Part shown: piece after piece, positions 20,740-30,672 of the stretch
Position numbering within the stretch: the stretch's first letter is position 1
How the letters are laid out: the number at the start of each line of letters is the position of its first letter
Sequence record: PQ738613
Source: Escherichia phage PhiKM
Reading direction: 5' to 3' (one strand)
DNA length: 34,674 nt
Notes under the pieces: model-generated
Database searches by the model: none
What the model was told of the DNA's origin: nothing
What the model saw: only the letters and a program-made list of their open reading frames with translations
Program-made: the position numbers and the translations under genes

Positions 20740-21129
20740 TTACTCTTTTTTCTCCGTATCTGCATCGGGTTCATCAGCAAATAGCTTGCCCTGCATCCGA
20801 TCCAGTTCTTCTTTTCTTACCCGCTTAACCACGCTGTAGACCCACTGAAGCGAAACACCAAATTTGCGGGCCAGTTCGTGGTGGTTGCGTCCGTTAAACT
20901 CCCTGAAGATTTCCCGGTCGCGCTGACTGACCTTCCATACCATGCCCATCGGGAAATAAACGTTTTGCCCGCCCCAGACCTGCATCATTCGGTTCGCGAC
21001 GGCCTGACCAATCTGGTCGGCAACTTCGGGCTCAATATCAATAATCTCGCGAACGGTCTCAGAGGTATGCTGTGCCAGTTCCACCAGGAGTTCCGGCCCC
21101 TTACTTCGAAACTGATTCAGGTCGCTCAT
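20740..21129 (-). CDS. mor: Mor/C-family transcriptional activator (middle/late operon regulator)
   Basis: 129-aa ORF, SD GGGAG; strong resemblance to Mu Mor C-terminal region (GGQ.VY.P.G...FNGRN..EL...GVS..WVY...KR.R). Confidence 0.85.
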   Translation of the reverse strand: MSDLNQFRSKGPELLVELAQHTSETVREIIDIEPEVADQIGQAVANRMMQVWGGQNVYFPMGMVWKVSQRDREIFREFNGRNHHELARKFGVSLQWVYSVVKRVRKEELDRMQGKLFADEPDADTEKKE

Positions 21130-21550
21130 GTTTGACTCCCGCAGCTCTGCGCTGCCACTTCTTCAGTTTCTCAATAACACTGCTTGCCTGTTCAGTACTG
21201 AGCCAGCGCAGGGCGCTGATGCCCGTTTCCCGCTTGATCCACCTCGCTAATGCATTTTCTGAACGGTCACGAACAATGCCGGCAGCAGCCATTTCAAGCC
21301 ATAGCGCACGAATTTTCCTGGACTGCGGATGGTTATCAAGCGGTAAACCGGAGCTGGCTTTTCTGGCTGGTTTAACGCGAAAGCCTTTCTTTTTCATGGA
21401 TTCCAGCACGCAGTTTAGTTGTGTGGTATCCATTCCTTTGGTTGAGGCTTTACCGGTCAGCCCCTGTAACATCTGGCGGTAGGTGTCTTCATCCATACCC
21501 AGTTCATTACGGGCAATATGGATAAGCTGTATCAGGCGTTTTTTCTGCAT
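21101..21550 (-). CDS. gemA: GemA-like protein (Mu gp16 family)
   Basis: 149-aa ORF with SD AAGGAG, immediately upstream of and overlapping mor as in Mu. Confidence 0.7.
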   Translation of the reverse strand: MQKKRLIQLIHIARNELGMDEDTYRQMLQGLTGKASTKGMDTTQLNCVLESMKKKGFRVKPARKASSGLPLDNHPQSRKIRALWLEMAAAGIVRDRSENALARWIKRETGISALRWLSTEQASSVIEKLKKWQRRAAGVKHERPESVSK

Positions 21551-21551
21551 A

Positions 21552-21758
21552 TCATCTCCTTTTTTTCAGTCTGTCGGCAACAATGTCGGTTGCAGCTGGC
21601 AGGGTGACTGGCCAGAACAACATGACGGCGGTCATGTACAGGATGTAATGCGCGGTGTCGTAGTGCCTGCCATAGCCCAGGGAACGATGAAGTCTTGCGC
21701 TGCATGATCCTGCGTACATATACCAGAAAAGAAAACAGACAATGGTTTCAGTAGTCAT
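21552..21758 (-). CDS. small membrane protein (hypothetical)
   Basis: ATG at 21758 with SD GGGGAGG; hydrophobic 68-aa product; track ORF 21552..21914 has unsupported N-terminal extension. Confidence 0.45.
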   Translation of the reverse strand: MTTETIVCFLFWYMYAGSCSARLHRSLGYGRHYDTAHYILYMTAVMLFWPVTLPAATDIVADRLKKRR

Positions 21759-21978
21759 TCTGAATACCTCCCCATTCGATATGAATATTACGGGCAGCAA
21801 TGACAGGGTCGTTATTCCACCATGCACCTGACATGTATTTTTCAACCTGTTCGCGTCCGGCAATAACACCAATTGTGATCCCCGGCCTGACGTTCTTAAA
21901 AAAGGCGCGGGCAAAAAGGTATCTGGCAGATATTCGGCAGGCTTTTAATTTCCGGCTTTTACCTGATAGCGTAATCAT
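21748..21978 (-). CDS. hypothetical protein
   Basis: 76-aa ORF, SD GGAGG 4 nt upstream; ATGA overlap with upstream gene. Confidence 0.4.
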   Translation of the reverse strand: MITLSGKSRKLKACRISARYLFARAFFKNVRPGITIGVIAGREQVEKYMSGAWWNNDPVIAARNIHIEWGGIQNDY

Positions 21979-22658
21979 CTGGCCTCCAGTTTCTGTTGTT
22001 CCTGCCCACTGACCGGGCGGTGCAGTCTGACGTTCTGCCCTTCACGAAACCCCGCATAGCGCGAGGCGTCGCCATTGCGGCTTCTTCCCGGTTTACGCGC
22101 CCTGGTGGTTTGCGTCTGCGGGTATTTATGTTCCAGCCACTGCTGCATCAGTTCACGCTCATCATCGGTCAGGGCAAAGGACTGTATTTCACTGATAACG
22201 GCCAGCACCCAGCCTTCGGCAAACTGGTCTCCACGGCTGGTGCGGGTGGCGGTTTTTATTCTTTTGTTCTGTGCACTGATATACTGCTGACGCGCCTTTT
22301 TCAGCTGACGGGCCAGCACTTCCCAGGTGTATGCAGCCAGTGCCGCACGTTCCCGGTTGCCGTAGAACCCCACAGACGGATGCGTGCCGGGGTGAATGAT
22401 GGAGTTAACACCAAATACCTCGCGGATGATGTTCATCAGGCCCAGCATGTAGCGCGGTGGACGGAGACTGCCTGTCGGCCAGTAGTGACTGATGGTTTCA
22501 TCAATATCACTCATAGCAATGTCGGAATGTGTGATGCCGTGAACATCCATCAGTTTACGGGCTCGGCGCAGTGCCAGAGCGGCCTCGTGCGGGTTGCCGG
22601 ATGCGGCCAGCGCCAGCAACTTTTTCAGTTTCTCAATGTGTTTATTCTGGTCTGTCAT
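21975..22658 (-). CDS. hypothetical early-region protein
   Basis: Start at 22658 (ATGA overlap with upstream gene, SD GGAG) preferred over track start 22694. Confidence 0.5.
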   Translation of the reverse strand: MTDQNKHIEKLKKLLALAASGNPHEAALALRRARKLMDVHGITHSDIAMSDIDETISHYWPTGSLRPPRYMLGLMNIIREVFGVNSIIHPGTHPSVGFYGNRERAALAAYTWEVLARQLKKARQQYISAQNKRIKTATRTSRGDQFAEGWVLAVISEIQSFALTDDERELMQQWLEHKYPQTQTTRARKPGRSRNGDASRYAGFREGQNVRLHRPVSGQEQQKLEAR

Positions 22659-22870
22659 TGTTCTGTATCTCCGGTATTTTTCTGCCGTTTCCATGCCCGG
22701 ACAGCGTCGGACAGCTCTTTCAGGCTGTATGCTGCTTTAAGCTTTTCCCATAACCACTGTGTTGTTATGTGCATCAGCAGGGCAGCCAGGGCTGCCCCCG
22801 CACTGAGGCATGTCGCCAGGCCAGTAAGAATCAGTGTCCATGCGGTGATTTCCCTGAGTATGTCAGCCAT
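22655..22870 (-). CDS. small membrane protein (hypothetical)
   Basis: 71-aa ORF with SD GGGAGG; one predicted hydrophobic helix (WTLILTGLATCLSAGAALAALL). Confidence 0.5.
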   Translation of the reverse strand: MADILREITAWTLILTGLATCLSAGAALAALLMHITTQWLWEKLKAAYSLKELSDAVRAWKRQKNTGDTEQ

Positions 22871-22884
22871 TGAATGCCTCCCGG

Positions 22885-23181
22885 TTACTCGTTCGTGTAA
22901 ATCACGCCCAGTCGTGCAGCCAGACGTTCCAGTTTTTTCTGTTTGTGGAAGTCAATCAGCCGGTCCATCCCCTGAAGGCGCAGTTGCTCTGTCATGATTT
23001 CCACGTCTGCCAGCTCTGCCGCGAGGTCACTTTCGCTGCCCTGTCCGTTCAGGTTGCGGGCGGCACTGGCCGCCAGTTCAGCGGCCTCTTCTGCCAGTTT
23101 CAGGGCCTGTGCGTCCGGCCCGAAACGCTGCAGGGCCAGACGGTAGAGGGCGGTGCGGGTGAGTTCGGTGTTTCGTGTCAT
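22885..23181 (-). CDS. hypothetical protein, possibly MazG-like NTP pyrophosphohydrolase fold
   Basis: 98-aa ORF, SD GAGGG; two Glu-rich helices (LAEEAAELAASA ... AAELADVEIMTEQL) resembling MazG-type EExxE motifs; tentative. Confidence 0.4.
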   Translation of the reverse strand: MTRNTELTRTALYRLALQRFGPDAQALKLAEEAAELAASAARNLNGQGSESDLAAELADVEIMTEQLRLQGMDRLIDFHKQKKLERLAARLGVIYTNE

Positions 23182-23190
23182 GCCGCGCCC

Positions 23191-23463
23191 TCAGTGCTTC
23201 CGGCTGACGGTGATGTGCAGGCCGCCTTCTGCAGTGGTTTCCATCCGGTACGGCACCTCATGCTCTGCCGTGTGGGTGAGTGTGTTCATCAGTACCTGCA
23301 GGGCAGCCTCCTTTCCGTTGGTCGCCACAATGGCCTGTGTGGCCATGCTGATTAGCGCCGTCAGGACGTGCTTCACATCGGTGAGGTCGCGGCATTCACA
23401 CTCGTTGACATAGTGTTCAACAAGGGTTCGGGTGCGCTGTCGTGCTTCCTGTGGGGTAATCAT
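23191..23463 (-). CDS. hypothetical protein
   Basis: 90-aa ORF with SD GGGAGGA; coupled to neighbours. Confidence 0.45.
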   Translation of the reverse strand: MITPQEARQRTRTLVEHYVNECECRDLTDVKHVLTALISMATQAIVATNGKEAALQVLMNTLTHTAEHEVPYRMETTAEGGLHITVSRKH

Positions 23464-23654
23464 TGCGAGTCCTCCCTGTCAGGGCGGGAGAATTCCATGA
23501 CGGGCACGTCTGCCGAAAAATGCTGGCTGCAGTACGGGCAGACCAGGGTGACGCGTACCGCAGGGATGTGGTATTTACCGGACATCACGGCGATGGCGCT
23601 GTGAAAACGCAGGGCTGTTATATCCCTCTCGCACTGAATACATTTAAATATCAT
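23460..23654 (-). CDS. zinc-ribbon protein (CxxC...CxxC), possible regulator
   Basis: 64-aa ORF with SD GAGGAG; Cys at positions 5, 8, 39, 42. Confidence 0.5.
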   Translation of the reverse strand: MIFKCIQCERDITALRFHSAIAVMSGKYHIPAVRVTLVCPYCSQHFSADVPVMEFSRPDREDSQ

Positions 23655-23751
23655 GATTTAATTCTCCTCTGTTTCCGGCGTGCAGAAGCCCGCGGCGCTG
23701 ACGTCGGAATAAAAAAGAAAATGTTTTTATTAAATAATTAACGTGGTGTGT

Positions 23752-24282
23752 TTACTGCACATCCTGCTCAAAAGGAATTATTGAAAAATCCTCAATGTCG
23801 CTTTTAATGGAAATACCGGGAATATTTTTCACGGCCTCTTTTTCATTCAGGATAGCGTCTTTATTTATTTCCTCTTTTACACGAATAAAGCGCTCAAGCC
23901 CCAGACGTCTCAGTAATTCAATAACATTATCCGCCCCACGGATACTGACTGATGGCGGACGGTTTCGCCACTGCACCTCGCCGGTGGTGAGGTTAGCGAA
24001 CTTCACCTTCCCGTTGCCGGTCAGTTCATCACGGTGTGCCTCACACCATGTCTGAATACCGGACTGCAGTTCGGCCATGCGTTTTTTCAGGCTCTCGGTG
24101 AGCGGGGCATAACGTGCGGTGATATCGCCAATGGCGTCATTCATTTCTGTTTCAGCCCTGACCAGTTCACGTTGTGCGTCACCGAGTAGTCTGATTCCCT
24201 CAATGACCTCTTCACGTGTCCCCGGCACCCAGAGTGCTGCTGCGGCCTTGATACGTTTTGCACCTTTTGTACTTTTTGCCAT
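23752..24282 (-). CDS. gam: host-nuclease inhibitor protein Gam (Mu Gam family)
   Basis: 176-aa product with extensive similarity to Mu Gam as remembered (NRPPSVSIRG, IEDFSIIPFEQ). Confidence 0.9.
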   Translation of the reverse strand: MAKSTKGAKRIKAAAALWVPGTREEVIEGIRLLGDAQRELVRAETEMNDAIGDITARYAPLTESLKKRMAELQSGIQTWCEAHRDELTGNGKVKFANLTTGEVQWRNRPPSVSIRGADNVIELLRRLGLERFIRVKEEINKDAILNEKEAVKNIPGISIKSDIEDFSIIPFEQDVQ

Positions 24283-24309
24283 TTTTTATGATTTCTCCAG
24301 TTGTGCTGA

Positions 24310-24579
24310 TTACCACAAAGATTCCGGCCACACGACGCGACAGCCGTGCAGTTCGAAAACGCCCTGACGGAAATATCCCCTGTGGTCATGTCCGGTATAC
24401 AGATAACAGGCCTTTCCCTGCTCAAGCATGCGCATGCAATGCGCACTCCGGGAAACGCGGATGACAGGTTTGTTACCCCTGATGGTGATGCTTTGTACAT
24501 CCGTGTTCGTCGCCTTAAGCGCCATAATGGCTGACTGCACTTTGCTGATTTGCTGGTTGATACCTGTGGTGGATTTCAT
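24310..24579 (-). CDS. hypothetical protein
   Basis: 89-aa ORF, SD AAAGGGG; lies between transposition ATPase and gam. Confidence 0.5.
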   Translation of the reverse strand: MKSTTGINQQISKVQSAIMALKATNTDVQSITIRGNKPVIRVSRSAHCMRMLEQGKACYLYTGHDHRGYFRQGVFELHGCRVVWPESLW

Positions 24580-24581
24580 TA

Positions 24582-25748
24582 TTAAACCCCTTTGACAACG
24601 TCAGCGTTGACCTGTGGAACCCCGATTTCAGCGGCCAGATTCATGGCGGCTATTACCAGGTTACTGACGGCCAGCGGATACAGCAGGCTGACCATATTTT
24701 TACGGTGACTTCCCGGATTGCTCAGGCGGGCACGTATGGCATCCACTGCACCGGCGTCCATAATGTCCGTCAGCTGTTTACCGGCCCGTTGCAGTTTGAA
24801 CGTCAGAAATTCTTCAAGGTTATTGTCCAGAGGCAGAAGTTCGACCACCTCACAGCGCTGAACGACTTCACGGACTTCCATATTGCGTTCAGACAGTTTT
24901 GTCGCCAGTTCCGGCTGGCCAATCAGCACGATGGACAGCAGTTTTTTGAAACCGGACTCCAGCTCAAAAAAGCGTTTGAGGTGTTTCAGTGTCGGAATGG
25001 GCAGACTGTGGGCCTCCTCAATCACCAGAACGTGGCTGAACCCCGCCTGGCTGCTGTCTTTCAGGACGCGATGCAACTGGCGAAAACGGGCGTCCTGACT
25101 GCGTCTGATGCTTTCCAGTGGTGCGATGGTACTGATAATGGCTTCGGCAATAGCTGCTGCCTTCAGGGTTTTCCCTTTCACATCGTTGTCTTCCATAGCG
25201 ATGATGTATGGCTCGATAACAATTACCGGCGCATTCTCGCGGTTGATACGTTCAGTCAGGTCGCGGCGCAGCGTGGATTTACCCGCACCGGACTCACCGA
25301 TGACGGCCATAAACCCACCATGACGGGCTGTCTGGTACAGCGCCTCACGCACGTAGCGAATGTCCGGGGTGGTGAACACATCATCAGAACCCTGCATGGC
25401 TTCGTCGGCGAACGGGTCACGGAAAAGACCAAACGCTTTTTTGGTTGCTGGAAATAACACCTGTTTTTTGAGTAACATATTCTCTTCCTCACTGAGGCTC
25501 GTTTTATCTGTGGTACCCGCTGTACGGGGCGTGGCCGCGCCCTGTACAGCATCAAAACTCTTCGTTGTATCAATCCCCTGACTTTCCAGCCAGGACGCAA
25601 GACGCCGGCGCACTTCTCCGGGGCTGGTGCGGGGCCACGCGTTATGATTCACAATCTGGGCCAGCGTGGCCTCAGAAACATCGACAGCTCTCGCCACCAC
25701 CGCCTGTGGAATACGGGCCTCTTTCAGTTGCTGCTTCAGTACCAGCAT
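24582..25748 (-). CDS. transposition ATPase (AAA+, TniB/ExeA/MuB-like B subunit)
   Basis: Walker A GESGAGKST and Walker B VLVIEEAH; ATG at 25748 preceded by GAGGAGGG; track start 25787 is a GTG whose N-terminal residues would be encoded by the SD itself. Confidence 0.8.
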   Translation of the reverse strand: MLVLKQQLKEARIPQAVVARAVDVSEATLAQIVNHNAWPRTSPGEVRRRLASWLESQGIDTTKSFDAVQGAATPRTAGTTDKTSLSEEENMLLKKQVLFPATKKAFGLFRDPFADEAMQGSDDVFTTPDIRYVREALYQTARHGGFMAVIGESGAGKSTLRRDLTERINRENAPVIVIEPYIIAMEDNDVKGKTLKAAAIAEAIISTIAPLESIRRSQDARFRQLHRVLKDSSQAGFSHVLVIEEAHSLPIPTLKHLKRFFELESGFKKLLSIVLIGQPELATKLSERNMEVREVVQRCEVVELLPLDNNLEEFLTFKLQRAGKQLTDIMDAGAVDAIRARLSNPGSHRKNMVSLLYPLAVSNLVIAAMNLAAEIGVPQVNADVVKGV

Positions 25749-25758
25749 GTTTCCCTCC

Positions 25759-27528
25759 TCAGTTGCCGTTAACAATGCTGATAACACTGCTGCGGGCCGG
25801 TGTGGTCAGCGTGGCCATGACTTCATCCAGTGCGGCTTCCGGTACGCCGTCCGGGTACTGTGCCGTTAACTGGCGGTAATGTTCCGGCGTCCAGGTAAGG
25901 CCGTCGGCGCTGAACTTATCGCGCAGGGCTTTCGCGGCCTCCACATGAGTCATGGGACGTTGTTCAGTGCGCGGCCCGCGTACGTCAGAGGCCTGACCAC
26001 GCTTCGGCATATAGGCCGGAAGTGTGGTGTCGTCGATATGTTTATACGGGTCAAGCCGCCCGCCGAACGGCAGCGCCTTCGCCTTGCGTGCGGCGGCTGC
26101 ATCTGCGGCGTTGTCTGTACCGGTAACCAGCGCTTCGGTTTCTTTTGCCGCCATCTGTGCCGGGGTTTCCGGCAGGGCTTTGTAACTTTCGCCAAATACC
26201 GCCGCGCCTTCAGCAAAGCCAAACTCGTTCTTTCTGACCTCTTCGACCAGGAAGAACGTCTCGTGGCCGTCCTCACCGGTCAGAACCACCTGTGCCACAT
26301 CGCTGCGCCATGGGTTACGGGTAATCATCAGTTTTTCACCAACCAGTACGCCCGGTACCGTTGATACGTCAAATTCAGTGCCCCGGAACGAGACACGAAG
26401 TTTTGGCGTGACTTTGCGGAGTTCTGGTGCCGCCACAGCCAGTTCACGACATACCTCAACGGAAGGCGCTTTTTTCAGCTGCTCAGCAGTAATCTTCAGC
26501 CAGATATCCGTGCGGGTTTTACCGTGGCGGCTGTGAACAGCCGTGGCGTTAAAGTGGCTGCGCCATTTCGCGGCCAGCGCGTTGAGTTCTTCCAGACTGT
26601 GAACCGGCCGGAACTTCAGACCCGGCTCCAGCTTGCGTTCGATAATGTCACGCGCCTTTTCCACCTGTCCGGTGGCGCGGGCGTTATGCGGCTTGTGCGC
26701 TATCAGGTCGATGCCCAGTGAGCGGCACATGTTTTTCGTCATACCCGCGGTGTTTGCCGAGCCGGGGTCGAGATAGAGTATTTTCGGCACGCCGTGCAGC
26801 ACGTCTGCGCCGCCACGCTCCTGCATGGCGTTGATAAGCACAGAACACAGGTTCTCACCTGATTCCGCGCCCGTCACATACTCAACGTAAATCCAGCCGC
26901 TGGCATGGTCGGTAATCTCGTAACTCCACACGCGGTCACTGGCGATACGGGCAAGGTTAGCGGGCTTGTTCTTGTAGAACTTCGCGCTGTCCATCACCTG
27001 CAGCCCTTTATGTCCATTGCTCAGGTAGTAAAGCGTGCAGAGTGAGGCGTCAATCTGCCAGACATGATTGGGATGCAGACTGGCCACTTCGGTATGTGGT
27101 GCAGGGGCATCCAGTTGTTCCGGGTGCAGGCCATAGTTACGCAGAGCACGGCTGATGGCATCTTCAGACAACGGGAAAAACTCACTGGTGGTTTCATCTG
27201 TTCTGCCTGCGGTGATAAAGCCGTTAGCCCGCAGGGTTTCCACTGCATCTGCGATGGAATAGAGACGCTTACCGTTCTTGCGGGTGGCCTCACGCAGTGT
27301 GGCAGATATCAGCGCGGCTTCGTCGCGGGTCAGGGCGCTGCGCCCGGCATCGGCGCGTTTTTTGCGTTTATCAGTCACAGATACCTCCTTCAGCCTGCGC
27401 AGCAGAGTGGCGCGGGACATGCCAAGTTCAGCACAGGCAGCGTCGTATATTGCACCGCGTTTACCATGCCCCGCGTCACGTGCCGCGCGGGCTGTTTCAA
27501 CCAGTTTTTCAGTCAGTGCCGGGGTCAT
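25759..27528 (-). CDS. DDE-type transposase (integrase-core, Mu A functional analogue)
   Basis: 589-aa ORF immediately upstream of the ATPase; N-terminal HTH-like region and rve-like core (HVWQIDAS ... LYLDPGSANT). Confidence 0.8.
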   Translation of the reverse strand: MTPALTEKLVETARAARDAGHGKRGAIYDAACAELGMSRATLLRRLKEVSVTDKRKKRADAGRSALTRDEAALISATLREATRKNGKRLYSIADAVETLRANGFITAGRTDETTSEFFPLSEDAISRALRNYGLHPEQLDAPAPHTEVASLHPNHVWQIDASLCTLYYLSNGHKGLQVMDSAKFYKNKPANLARIASDRVWSYEITDHASGWIYVEYVTGAESGENLCSVLINAMQERGGADVLHGVPKILYLDPGSANTAGMTKNMCRSLGIDLIAHKPHNARATGQVEKARDIIERKLEPGLKFRPVHSLEELNALAAKWRSHFNATAVHSRHGKTRTDIWLKITAEQLKKAPSVEVCRELAVAAPELRKVTPKLRVSFRGTEFDVSTVPGVLVGEKLMITRNPWRSDVAQVVLTGEDGHETFFLVEEVRKNEFGFAEGAAVFGESYKALPETPAQMAAKETEALVTGTDNAADAAAARKAKALPFGGRLDPYKHIDDTTLPAYMPKRGQASDVRGPRTEQRPMTHVEAAKALRDKFSADGLTWTPEHYRQLTAQYPDGVPEAALDEVMATLTTPARSSVISIVNGN

Positions 27529-27543
27529 AGCTTGTCTTCCCTG

Positions 27544-27861
27544 TTATCCGATTCTGGCGGCAATTTTTCTGGCGAGGTCGCACAGTGTTTCGCCATCGCA
27601 GGTTTTCACCACGGTATTTACCGGTTGCGGTGCAACTACCGGGCGTAATGCTGACTGATTCTGCAGACGTCTTATCTGCTGCATCAGCATCACCTCCATC
27701 GTCAGTACAAACGGGTGCGTCTCCTGTGCGGGTACGCAGATTTCACCGGAAGGGGTCACCACGCGGAAACCCTGCACCATCTCCGGCAGCAGATTACACA
27801 GTGCGTGCCCCAGTGCCTCCGGGCTGTCCATCAGGGTATTTTGTGTGTTATTCGTATTCAT
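27544..27861 (-). CDS. hypothetical protein
   Basis: 105-aa ORF, SD GGAGG; TAATG overlap with upstream gene. Confidence 0.45.
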   Translation of the reverse strand: MNTNNTQNTLMDSPEALGHALCNLLPEMVQGFRVVTPSGEICVPAQETHPFVLTMEVMLMQQIRRLQNQSALRPVVAPQPVNTVVKTCDGETLCDLARKIAARIG

Positions 27862-28781
27862 TACTGCATATCCTCCGGTCGGTTGATTTCAGGTTCCGGT
27901 TCGGTCAGCCAGGCGGGGGCATCGTTACCCGATGGAGCGGCCTCAAGGTCAAACGTCTCACGTAATGCATGAACACTGCGTTCAATCTGGCAGACCAGAC
28001 CGGCCATGAAATCTCTGGGGGTATCGATCATGTTTTTGGTGCAGTATTCACACAGGGTCTCAAAAACACTGGACAGCCGGACGGCGATAGCCGATTCGGC
28101 CTCAACCGCTAATGCCGTCACTTCCGCCCGCAATTTTTTCAGTTCTTCGTCTGGCGGCGGAGGTTGCAGGCGCGATTTCTTCTCCAGTTTTGTGGCCAGT
28201 TCGTTGATTTTTTCGTCCTTTCCGGCAAGCACCTGTTGCTGAGCTGCGTTGGTTTCGCGCGCTTCACGCAGGGCGGCCTTCAGTTCGCGGCTGGTCATGC
28301 GATCAATATCATCAAGCGTTGCACCGGCGACGGTTCCACCATCAGCTAATGCGTCGAGTTCTTCGTCATCCAGAACCATCAGTTCATATAACTTGGTTTT
28401 TCCCAAAACGCTCAGCGCTGAGCGTTTTGGCTGTTCATCTCCATTGCCGAGAAATTTCACGCTGGCCTGCATCATGCGACGAGCTACCTGTGGTGCTAAT
28501 CCGAGGTCGTTTTCCAGAATATTTGTGAAATCACCATGCGGTTCATTTTCTTTTAAGATGATCAGCCGCTTACCCGCTTCCAACATAGATTCAGCACTCT
28601 GCGCCATATAAAAACGTGCTTCGTGAACGATGCGTTCACGTTCATAAGGCAGTCCATCACCAAACTGCTGCATGATCTCCATGCGATGCTGTGTCATGGC
28701 ATTCAGGCTGACGTTGAGATCATCCGACAGCGGTACATCGGCGTTCAGTTCAGTGTTAATCGGTGATTTGGTACGTCCCAT
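27861..28781 (-). CDS. hypothetical protein (coiled-coil, acidic; DUF3102-like?)
   Basis: 306-aa ORF with strong SD AAGGAG 6 nt upstream of ATG 28781. Confidence 0.5.
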   Translation of the reverse strand: MGRTKSPINTELNADVPLSDDLNVSLNAMTQHRMEIMQQFGDGLPYERERIVHEARFYMAQSAESMLEAGKRLIILKENEPHGDFTNILENDLGLAPQVARRMMQASVKFLGNGDEQPKRSALSVLGKTKLYELMVLDDEELDALADGGTVAGATLDDIDRMTSRELKAALREARETNAAQQQVLAGKDEKINELATKLEKKSRLQPPPPDEELKKLRAEVTALAVEAESAIAVRLSSVFETLCEYCTKNMIDTPRDFMAGLVCQIERSVHALRETFDLEAAPSGNDAPAWLTEPEPEINRPEDMQ

Positions 28782-28791
28782 TGATTACTCC

Positions 28792-29100
28792 TTACAAACG
28801 ACTACCTGAAATGACACGTTGGTTAATTTCGTTAATACGATCCTGTGCACGTGCCATCTCGTTACTGTGGGCCATGGCGATCTGCAGTAACTGGATGCCC
28901 GGTGCAAAACGTCCGTTCTCCAGTTTCAGAGCCAGCCCTTCTTCAATGAGGGTGTTGAGTGCCCGGTTGATGTTTGCCGGTGACTCGTGCAGTGCTGTCG
29001 CCAGTTCACCGTTAGAAATACCGTTCAGGGCATGACCGCGCAGCGCTTTGAGTACCCGGAGGATGCGACTGCCGGAGCTTGAAACATTCGTCTTACTCAT
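28792..29100 (-). CDS. small winged-helix/HTH protein (IclR-like N-terminal domain only)
   Basis: Pattern ILRVLKAL...GISNGELATALHESPANINRALNTLIEEGL resembles IclR-type HTH; start at 29100 (SD AGAGG) preferred over 29106. Confidence 0.45.
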   Translation of the reverse strand: MSKTNVSSSGSRILRVLKALRGHALNGISNGELATALHESPANINRALNTLIEEGLALKLENGRFAPGIQLLQIAMAHSNEMARAQDRINEINQRVISGSRL

Positions 29101-29152
29101 CTGCATACCTCTTTTGCGATATGTGATAACCTTTTACAAAGACTCAAAATAT

Positions 29153-29341
29153 TTAGGCCGCCTGAGCTGTTGATTTCAGTCCCAACTTCACGGCGATTTC
29201 ATGGGATTTACCGTAACGGGCTTTGGTCTGCCCGTTGAGAACGCGGTATACCTCATTGCGGTTGTAGCCGTTTTCTTCTGCCCAGCGGGTGAAAGTGATC
29301 CCGCGCTGGCGGAAGAGAGCTTTGACTTGTTCTGCAGTCAT
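29153..29341 (-). CDS. Ner/Cro-like small DNA-binding protein (first gene of early operon)
   Basis: 62-aa ORF with SD AAGGAG 6 nt upstream; divergent from repressor across a 93-bp palindrome-containing region. Confidence 0.6.
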   Translation of the reverse strand: MTAEQVKALFRQRGITFTRWAEENGYNRNEVYRVLNGQTKARYGKSHEIAVKLGLKSTAQAA

Positions 29342-29393
29342 CGTTGTCTCCTTTGTTGATGCAATGATGTTTGCCTTATATGTGTTAGATTAT

Positions 29394-29411
29394 TGCTCAT
29401 AATTATGAGCA
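29394..29411. promoter_or_regulatory. 18-bp perfect palindrome TGCTCATAATTATGAGCA, candidate operator
   Basis: Directly read; half-site TTATGAGCA recurs at 29433-29441 overlapping the repressor start codon (29435). Confidence 0.5.
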
Positions 29412-29434
29412 TATCAAGATAGAGATTCACTTTT

Positions 29435-29791
29435 ATGAGCAAAGATATAGGAGAGCGCGTTATTTCTGTGAGGAAGAAAGCAGGGTTGAACCAGAGAGAA
29501 TTTGCAGCTCGTTTAGGTATTTCTAATGGTGGTATCAGTCAGATTGAAAATGGAAAGGCGATGCCTGGAGGGGAGTTTCTGTTAAAGATGCATCAAGAGT
29601 TTAATGTTGATGTAAATTGGTTGCTCACTGGAATGAGCACAGATGGTATGACTAGAAACCAGAATCAAATTTCCCCAGAAAAACAAAAACTAATAGATAC
29701 TTTTGACGACATGACACCAGACCAACAACGCTCATTTCTTGAGATTGGGCGATTCTATACTCAGCCAAAACCAGGAAAAATCGCAGGCTGA
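29435..29791 (+). CDS. XRE-family HTH repressor (Mu c functional analogue)
   Basis: 118-aa ORF; N-terminal Cro/C1-type HTH (LNQREFAARLGISNGGISQIENGK); divergent from early operon. Confidence 0.7.
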   Translation: MSKDIGERVISVRKKAGLNQREFAARLGISNGGISQIENGKAMPGGEFLLKMHQEFNVDVNWLLTGMSTDGMTRNQNQISPEKQKLIDTFDDMTPDQQRSFLEIGRFYTQPKPGKIAG

Positions 29792-29877
29792 TACTGACCC
29801 GGACACAAAGGACAGGTGGTTGATCTGGATGCTTTCAGAAAACATCGCCAGTGACATAGTGGAAGTTGTTTGGTTTA

Positions 29878-29908
29878 CCGGAAAGCATTGTGCTTTCCGG
29901 TTTTGTTT
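29878..29908 (+). terminator. rho-independent terminator between convergent repressor and methyltransferase genes
   Basis: CCGGAAAGCA (29878-29887) ttg TGCTTTCCGG (29891-29900) followed by TTTTGTTT. Confidence 0.55.
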
Positions 29909-30672
29909 CAGAAGTTGCAGATTAGCAGTTCACGGCGCGGCGTGGGTTTACCCGCCAGACTGTAGTTGATATTCACTGTCTGTATGTTCAGTCCAGTGAA
30001 CACCTCGCGCATCTGCGGGATGTCGTTCACCGAAATTATCATTTTTCCTCTGATGCACCGGGCCAGCTCTGCCAGCCGCGAGTAGTTCCCTTCAGGAAAA
30101 TCCACACCATAGCCTTCCGTACCCAGGTACGGTGGGTCGCAGTAGAACAGCGTGTGCGGACGATCATAACGCTCAATGCACTGTTGCCAGTCCATGTGTT
30201 CTATGACTGTTCTGGAAAGCCGCAGGTGTGCCGCTGACAGTTCTTCTTCAATACGTAGCAGGTTGAAGCGTGGCGGGGATGTGGTGGAGGTACCGAAGCT
30301 GTGCTCTGCCACCTTGCCGCCAAACGCCTGCTTCTGAAGGTAGTAGAACCGTGCCGCACGCTGGATATCCGTCAGTGTTTCTTCCGGGGTGATCTGCAGC
30401 CATTTGTAGATCTGACGGCTGACCAGCGCCCATTTGAACTGGCGGACAAATTCTTCCAGGTGATGCTTTACCACCCGGTACAGATTCACCAGTTCACCGT
30501 TGATATCATTGATGACTTCGATCTTGCCGGGTGTCTTAAGAAAATAGAGCGCTGCTGCCCCACAAAACGGCTCCACATAACATTCATGCGCCGGAAACAG
30601 CGGCAGAATGTGTTTTGCAAGGCGGCGTTTGCCACCAATCCACGGCACGATGGGTAATGTCTGCATTTTCAT
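29908..30672 (-). CDS. DNA adenine methyltransferase (Dam / D12-class N6-adenine MTase family)
   Basis: DPPY motif (FYCDPPYLGTEGYG), N-terminal PIVPWIGGKRRL and EPFCGAAALYF motifs; start at 30672 (MKMQTLP) preferred; track ORF extends to 30762 through palindromic non-coding-looking DNA. Confidence 0.85.
   Translation of the reverse strand: MKMQTLPIVPWIGGKRRLAKHILPLFPAHECYVEPFCGAAALYFLKTPGKIEVINDINGELVNLYRVVKHHLEEFVRQFKWALVSRQIYKWLQITPEETLTDIQRAARFYYLQKQAFGGKVAEHSFGTSTTSPPRFNLLRIEEELSAAHLRLSRTVIEHMDWQQCIERYDRPHTLFYCDPPYLGTEGYGVDFPEGNYSRLAELARCIRGKMIISVNDIPQMREVFTGLNIQTVNINYSLAGKPTPRRELLICNF

Follow-up and report, generated by a model that had tools for sequence, protein, structure and literature searches.

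The ner-repressor locus and its predicted early promoter

We analyzed a 34,674-nt stretch of DNA from Escherichia phage PhiKM (record PQ738613), referred to below as the window, and focused on the short region that separates two divergent genes, one for a Ner-like protein and one for an immunity repressor, together with the dyad sites found there and inside the repressor gene. The window carries a BcepMu/B3-like transposable prophage of E. coli, an assignment based on its gene content, on the 'BcepMu_gp16 family' annotation that RefSeq gives to some copies of Ner, and on the closest phage relatives at the DNA level, which for this region are Pseudomonas B3-like and Ralstonia phages. Many E. 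coli chromosomes carry the region at 100% identity, and the Ner region is present in 592 of 5426 complete E. coli genomes. Its principal features are as follows (positions are those of the window).

29153–29341, minus strand: Ner-like gene, 62 amino acids, heading the operon of the early promoter Pe; match to PHROG 925 (3.8e-33)
29435–29791, plus strand: immunity repressor gene, 118 amino acids, ATG at 29435
29389–29417, minus strand: Pe, predicted early (lytic/transposition) promoter; −35 TTGATA at 29417–29412, 17-bp spacer, −10 AATAAT at 29394–29389
29394–29411, no strand: O1, predicted primary operator, TGCTCA-TAATTA-TGAGCA (TGCTCATAATTATGAGCA)
29424–29441, no strand: O2, predicted secondary, degenerate operator, GATTCA-CTTTTA-TGAGCA (GATTCACTTTTATGAGCA), overlapping the repressor ATG
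29622–29639, no strand: O3, predicted intragenic operator, TGCTCA-CTGGAA-TGAGCA, in repressor codons 63–69 (LLTGMST)

The layout is that of Mu-type phages, with repressor and ner divergent and ner first in the early transposase operon. Pe is the only match to the sigma-70 consensus between 27500 and 30000 (10 of 12 positions). It reads into ner and the transposase operon, and O1 exactly fills its 17-bp spacer; a dyad thus overlaps the core of the lytic promoter. The −10 element and a −35 element of the form TTGAYn stand at fixed positions in 45 distinct relatives, and the dyad-in-spacer layout is common to them.

A preliminary description of this stretch had placed 93 bp between the two genes and had pointed to a perfect 18-bp palindrome in the gap, with its right half-site TTATGAGCA repeated at 29433–29441 across the repressor ATG. 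The gap, the palindrome (O1) and the repeat were all found where they had been placed. The repeat at the start codon is, however, better seen as part of a full, degenerate dyad (O2) with one consensus and one degenerate half, which agrees with the dyad at 9 of the 12 specified positions and lies 30 bp from O1, centre to centre. Overlooked in that description was O3, the second exact TGCTCA-N6-TGAGCA in the window, situated 228 bp from O1. For this pattern 0.002 exact copies would be expected in the window, and two were observed. In the whole 34.7 kb there are exactly three occurrences of the 9-mer TTATGAGCA, confined to a stretch of 48 bp, and its one-mismatch matches elsewhere in the window are at background level. 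A perfect palindrome with arms of at least 9 nt is by itself no rarity when the whole window is considered (70 of 500 dinucleotide shuffles), but inside the AT-rich 93-bp intergenic region it arose in only 5 of 20000 shuffles, and a chance origin of the intergenic palindrome was therefore rejected. A possible fourth site at 29985–30002 (TGTTCA-N6-TGAACA) was also rejected: it is identical in phages of immunity types B, C, and G (see below) and absent from relatives of the window's own type A.

The dyad follows the DNA-binding domain of the repressor

For comparison, 80 further loci were gathered via Ner, plus others, and were sorted into immunity types by their dyad pattern. At least eight types were found, and further dyads are each represented by a single locus. 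Every type carries its own dyad in the O1 slot, that is, between the conserved −10 and the TTGAYn −35.

Type A (the window's type): TGCTCA-N6-TGAGCA
Type B: GTGCAG-N5-CTCAC
Type C: ATACAC-N4-GTGTAT
Type D: GAGAAC-N4-GTTCTC
Type E: TGTCTAA-N4-TTAGACA
Type F: TGTGAT-N6-ATCACA
Type G: TATCCCAT-AA-ATGGGATA
Type H: TTCCC-N4-GGGAA

E. coli relatives with partial matches are mosaics. In locus L001, Ner is 100% and an IclR-like protein encoded downstream of it (ORF104) 97% identical to the window's, and the DNA is 97–100% identical up to position 29393. From 29394, the first base of O1, sliding identity drops to about 40–50%; it recovers gradually from about 29690 and reaches 100% from 29813. Over this interval the L001 repressor's N-terminal domain is only 24% identical to that of the window, and in place of the TGCTCA dyad there is an unrelated repeat, GGTGCAGATTACCTCACC, a second copy of which lies 31 bp away and abuts the L001 repressor ATG. 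The breakpoint between immunity types thus coincides with the left edge of O1, and the exchanged block can be delimited as follows.

29394 to about 29690, plus strand: immunity cassette, a jointly inherited block of O1, the Pe −35, O2, the repressor DNA-binding domain, and O3

Among about 70 typed loci, the repressor DNA-binding domains had a median identity of 0.90 where the dyad type was shared and 0.26 where it differed; F and D, the types closest to each other, have related half-sites too. Operator sequence strictly covaries with the DNA-binding domain (immunity specificity). As the dyad tracks the repressor domain while Ner, the IclR-like open reading frame (ORF), and the flanking DNA stay unchanged, the repressor is the predicted reader. 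The preliminary description had not decided which of the two helix-turn-helix (HTH) proteins binds the palindrome; since the dyad is swapped together with the repressor domain, these alignments support assigning it to the repressor rather than to Ner or the IclR-like protein.

Ner deserves attention as a reader of the palindrome, since it is the HTH protein encoded directly beside the region. The Ner protein of phage Mu binds in the divergent promoter region, between Pe and Pc, and by analogy the palindrome might be a Ner operator, with the repressor acting elsewhere. We regard this as highly improbable. In L001 an identical Ner, and a nearly identical IclR-like protein, accompany a completely different dyad, so that both proteins were rejected as readers; the dyad follows the repressor domain over the typed loci; and in the reverse situation, locus L101, a type-A domain and TGCTCA dyads are kept although Ner is only 57% identical. 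A better candidate for the Ner site is a universally conserved block beside the promoter.

29358–29374, no strand: conserved non-coding block GATGCAATGATGTTTGC, an imperfect dyad (GCAA..TTGC) located downstream of the predicted start of Pe by a few bases

This block has the highest information content among the 45 distinct loci, B3-like phages included, and is kept in every immunity type and in B3; its co-conservation with Ner makes it a candidate Ner operator.

A further alternative is suggested by phage Mu, in which MuA binds an internal activation sequence that overlaps with the operator region: the dyads could be read by the transposase or by a host factor, as a Mu-style transposition enhancer, with repression a secondary effect. 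To this we assign the lowest probability of all the explanations considered. The repressor is an XRE-family HTH protein; the Pfam search of the transposase gave the rve core as its sole domain. Moreover, the dyad varies by immunity type while the flanking early-region DNA, which is what was compared, is 97–100% identical in L001, and a host factor would not need type-specific sequences.

Several loci show how such cassettes are rearranged. In L084 (IMGVR_UViG_3300018478_000099) a type-E DNA-binding domain is followed by a linker and tail that hardly differ from those of the window; the joint left by recombination corresponds to window position 29631, in the central spacer of O3, and the right half-site ATGAGCA is left as a relic. 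In L091 (IMGVR_UViG_2576861014_000008) the dyad in the O1 slot, TTGCTCAA-TATT-TTGAGCAA, contains the type-A hexamers of the window. We considered this locus as a counter-example, with type-A hexamers and a different repressor, and rejected it, as the geometry of its dyad is that of type E and the recognition helix is likewise type-E-like; it looks like a convergence of half-site sequence between two specificities. In type-D prophages (L003/L004, 1779–1798) the annotated repressor ATG (WP_001259267/8) falls within the O1 palindrome ATGAGAACTATTGTTCTCAT. Translation more probably starts 36 nt downstream, at a GTG with GAGG before it, and the RefSeq proteins are therefore probably 12 residues too long.

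The dyads are conserved as DNA

The type-A cassette is effectively clonal within E. coli, being present at 99% identity or more in 391 genomes, several of them labeled ST131. Diverged copies were therefore taken from other genera: type-A homologues with 57–78% repressor identity came from Serratia, Klebsiella, a Citrobacter-type locus, Symbiopectobacterium, and metagenomes. All of them have TGCTCA-N6-TGAGCA at −41/−40 from the ATG, with invariant outer hexamers and a variable centre (TAATTA, CAATAA, TTATTT, TAATTG, TTATTA). Conservation of the palindrome, whose lack among relatives, along with a lack of binding by either protein, the preliminary description had named as refuting its operator proposal, thus held in all same-type relatives, and together with the position of O1 in the Pe spacer it supports an operator for the early promoter. 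O2 is also present in all of these relatives, at −11; its right half is exact and its left half of the TTCA type. O3 is found at +188 in every one of them, with no mismatch in the 12 outer positions, while its centre and the neighbouring synonymous sites vary.

O2 and O3 overlap coding sequence, so we asked whether protein sequence could account for them. O1 might be the only genuine operator, O2 reflecting the context of the start codon and O3 arising from the conserved WLLTG peptide motif or from recombination at the boundary between domains, and neither having a regulatory role. Indeed, O2 overlaps the ATG and a Ser codon, O3 overlaps a conserved peptide motif and has the L084 recombination joint in its middle, and several immunity types, as well as L101, have no O3. 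The coding comparison, based on ten distinct type-A repressor sequences with a mean nucleotide identity of 74%, makes this explanation unlikely. The only invariant runs of at least 6 nt in their first 225 bases are 1–7 (ATGAGCA), 188–193 (TGCTCA), and 200–205 (TGAGCA). Codons 2, 64, and 68, i.e., all three of the operator codons, are fixed in the ten sequences, as against none of the 37 other degenerate codons of conserved residues (Fisher p = 1e-4). Codon 69 encodes four different amino acids (T, S, N, M), yet its first base is always A; a Thr-to-Ser change at codon 65 is encoded by AGT; and type C has the identical WLLTG motif with CTT CTT codons. These three observations indicate selection on the DNA and not on the protein. 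At the repressor start, L101 retains TGAGCA despite a GTG start codon, and types B, C, and D have their own, differing half-sites over their start codons.

Six-bp inverted repeats with a variable 6-nt centre are also what conserved arms around a free loop would look like, and the sites could accordingly be RNA or DNA hairpins, for example an O3 stem-loop affecting the stability or translation of the repressor mRNA. This we consider very unlikely. The arms are invariant and never covary, and the same 12 bases occur at O1, which is mostly untranscribed promoter spacer, and at O3, which argues for a shared sequence-specific reader instead of copied hairpins. Type B, too, shares its arms between sites, with different bases; O2 has one good arm only; and no Rfam family was matched.

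The arrangement of operators recurs, in part, in other immunity types. A copy of the type's own dyad is found at the place of O2, 29–34 bp from O1. In type B, O2 is exact and there is also a perfect palindrome within the gene, GTGCAG-TTAT-CTGCAC, which is located 175–176 bp from O1 in all distinct sequences and is the longest invariant run of the type-B coding sequence. Other intragenic candidates were seen in type C (a weak one at +191, invariant in its right half only), in type H (at +277), and in B3 (a candidate with two mismatches only). Types D, E, and G and the Pseudomonas phage Fc02 have O1 and usually O2; an intragenic third site was not detected in any of them. Presence of O3 does not correlate cleanly with the class of the repressor C-terminal tail, as types G and E2 have the common tail but no detectable O3. 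The O1–O3 spacing of type A is 52 bp longer than that of type B, a difference of 4.95 helical turns, which places the intragenic sites in the same helical phase. This would be expected if looping geometry were under selection, but with two cases it is suggestive at best. In L101 a perfect palindrome of another sequence, GTGGCTCCT-TAC-AGGAGCCAC, stands at the WLLTG codons, +176 from the GTG start, in place of O3.

The repressor is a P22 c2/434-like protein with an exchangeable tail

The repressor consists of an XRE-family HTH domain of the P22 c2/434 kind (residues 1–66), a linker, and a two-helix C-terminal tail. Its DNA-binding domain matches Pfam HTH_3 (4.6e-15) and Phage_CI_repr (1.8e-5), and in a profile search against the Protein Data Bank the best matches were the DNA-binding domains of P22 c2 (1e-11) and 434 repressor. 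The AlphaFold model (mean confidence score, pLDDT, 79) has five helices, a disordered linker (residues 71–77), and two C-terminal helices. With Foldseek, the HTH of the model superimposes on chains of the P22 c2-operator complex with a root-mean-square deviation (rmsd) of 1.2 Å. P22 c2 binds 18-bp operators with conserved outer bases and a non-contacted centre. The top Foldseek match was full-length SinR (E 2.7e-4, 110 columns, 24% identity), with an overall rmsd of 12 Å and a score dominated by the HTH. SinR forms tetramers through a two-helix tail, and from the model it is plausible that the repressor likewise oligomerizes via its tail. Over its full length the repressor is 31% identical to the annotated repressor of Fc02.

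No S24 peptidase domain, responsible for RecA-stimulated autocleavage in proteins of the lambda CI/LexA type, was found by Pfam in the 118-residue repressor, and the model has only two short helices after the HTH. The tail is common to types A, B, C, G, and H and is exchanged separately from the DNA-binding domain. Among the repressors, the C-terminal tails form at least four exchangeable classes, including a shared ...QPKPxKxAG tail. Two distant relatives, L083 and L086, have long tails with a GDSMEP motif, which suggests an S24-type peptidase domain. As tail classes differ, related phages may use different routes of induction.

Proposed mechanism

We propose that the locus is an immunity switch in which the repressor acts through TGCTCA-N6-TGAGCA dyads, at O1 on Pe, at O2 for autoregulation, and at O3 by looping or as a roadblock, and we put the probability of this at roughly 80%. 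Binding to O1–O3, the dimeric or tetrameric state of the repressor, and the roles of O2 and O3 are what we infer from the comparisons above. Most likely, a repressor dimer would sit on each 18-bp dyad, with contacts to the outer hexamers but none to the AT-rich centre. The best supported step is the next one: as O1 lies between the −35 and −10 of Pe, a dimer bound there would exclude RNA polymerase, and ner, the transposase gene, and the remaining early operon would be kept silent. Silence of the early operon would maintain lysogeny and confer immunity to superinfection. At high repressor levels O2 would lower expression of the repressor itself; such negative autoregulation is likely, because several immunity types have O2 over the beginning of the repressor gene. 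O3 would most likely support a repressor-bridged loop that stabilizes occupancy of O1 and O2, or a roadblock to the repressor's own transcription, or both. For this the precedents are the OD site of phage TP901-1 (PMC7250872) and lac O3 (PMC3711431).

We also consider, more tentatively, that the whole specificity apparatus is contained in one cassette of about 250–300 bp, made up of the DNA-binding domain and its three operators, one of which is written into codons at the repressor's domain boundary, so that a single pair of crossovers could swap immunity, and that a loop of about 230 bp around the repressor start and the N-terminal coding region couples repression of the transposase promoter to self-limitation. 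As a whole, this extension is possible but on balance doubtful.

Several observations weigh against the proposed switch. The promoter of the repressor was not found: between 27500 and 30000 there is no consensus promoter on the plus strand. Candidates seen by eye, among which none could be selected, are a conserved, extended −10-like TGnTAGATT at 29383–29391, a −10-like CATAAT inside O1, and a weak nAnnTT hexamer 8–13 bp before the ATG, which would possibly give a leaderless transcript. Which way O2 and O3 would act is for this reason inferred. In Fc02 the lysogenic repressor transcript comes from a distal promoter, pC1, upstream of ner (PMC9936078), which makes the action of O2 and O3 on repressor expression uncertain. 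O3 was not detected in types D, E, and G or in L101, so the design can do without a third site. The O1–O3 spacing in the window corresponds to 21.7 helical turns, which is not an integer. With respect to oligomerization, the SinR match is mostly HTH-driven and Pfam reports no SinI-type domain. Finally, the searched literature yielded neither a description of operators nor results from binding, footprinting or reporter experiments for any member of this phage family, the present prophage included.

Other features of the region

Leftward from Pe, ner is followed by the gene for the IclR-like HTH protein, a DUF3102 gene, the gene for the rve-domain transposase (match to PHROG 310, 3.7e-147), and a gene for an AAA ATPase. 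On the other side of the locus, one further element was noted.

29877–29901, plus strand: intrinsic terminator-like hairpin 3′ of the repressor gene, an 11-bp stem followed by a T run; kept in L001 and L005

The long ORFs of positions 1–20600 mostly read rightward (plus strand), toward the leftward early operon (20740–29341, minus strand); by their position they are presumably the late genes.

Within the DUF3102 gene, at 28403–28430, there is a perfect 28-bp palindrome, CCAAAACGCTCAGCGCTGAGCGTTTTGG, which encodes the peptide PKRSALSVLG. Its symmetry is kept across immunity types by compensatory changes, e.g., CCAAAACGGCAAGCGCTTGCCGTTTTGG in L033 and TCAAAACGGCCAACGTTGGCCGTTTTGG in L074, and this pattern points to a conserved hairpin, cruciform, or symmetric site. 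As an operator of the immunity repressor it was rejected.

Significance

What we describe is an ordinary kind of phage immunity switch, not described before in this phage group, with a predicted intragenic third operator. The prophage family is common in E. coli, and its lysis-lysogeny switch had not previously been dissected. The analysis provides a catalogue of at least eight predicted repressor/operator pairs on one scaffold, which may be of use for predicting superinfection immunity groups, for studying the evolution of HTH specificity, and as a source of orthogonal repressor-operator parts. O3 offers a clear example of a regulatory site held by selection on synonymous positions, with a testable prediction of looping or roadblock.

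Comparison with known systems

The proposed switch resembles those of lambdoid phages (lambda, 434, P22 c2; OR/OL) in several respects. It has an HTH repressor of the Cro/CI type, for which the P22 c2 domain is the closest solved structure, and dyads whose outer bases are conserved while the centre varies. The operators lie between divergent genes, near the start of the repressor gene, and overlap the lytic promoter, and they are exchanged jointly with the DNA-binding domain as an immunity cassette. In contrast to lambdoid repressors, the 118-residue protein of the window ends in a two-helix tail and lacks an autocleavage domain of the S24/LexA type. There are two intergenic sites and not three, and the auxiliary site is 228 bp off, inside the repressor gene, whereas the second lambdoid cluster is kilobases away. 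The partner of the repressor is Ner, not Cro, and the operon under control encodes a transposase.

With the c/Ner/Pe-Pc system of Mu the locus shares its setting: the phage is transposable, repressor and ner diverge, and ner comes first in the early operon, ahead of the transposase genes. In Mu, a repressor with a MuA-like winged-helix domain binds, with the help of IHF, to clusters of asymmetric repeats (O1–O3). The repressor of the window, an XRE HTH protein with simple 18-bp dyads, is not of this Mu type. Another difference is the orientation of the early region, which in the window, as in BcepMu-type genomes, runs opposite to the late genes, while in Mu the two are collinear.

A parallel by homology is the repc-ner region of the Pseudomonas B3-family phages B3 and Fc02, which encodes a homologous Ner and the 31% identical repressor mentioned above. 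In Fc02 this intergenic region is also short and is predicted to hold overlapping promoters pC2 and pE; the repressor controls pE, as heat inactivation of a temperature-sensitive repressor leads to transcription from pE into ner (PMC9936078). Operators are not described in that paper (PMC9936078). A dyad nevertheless occupies the spacer in both phages, TGGGAC-N6-GTCCCA in Fc02 and GGTGC-N8-GCACC in B3. The C-terminal tail of the repressor is of a different class.

Phage TP901-1 offers a parallel for the number and placement of sites. Its CI protein, composed of an N-terminal HTH and a helical hook, has three dyad operators (OR, OL, OD), one at the lytic promoter and a distal one in coding sequence, and the topology is conserved in relatives though operator sequences differ (PMC7250872). 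The distal site of TP901-1 is in the lytic gene mor, unlike that of the window, which is in the repressor gene, and CI of TP901-1 is larger and forms hexamers. An auxiliary operator associated with its own repressor gene is found in lac O3, at the end of lacI, where the site can serve looping as well as roadblock autoregulation (PMC3711431). There the protein family is unrelated and the operon chromosomal, whereas the site in the window stands in the middle of the gene, at the domain boundary of the repressor.

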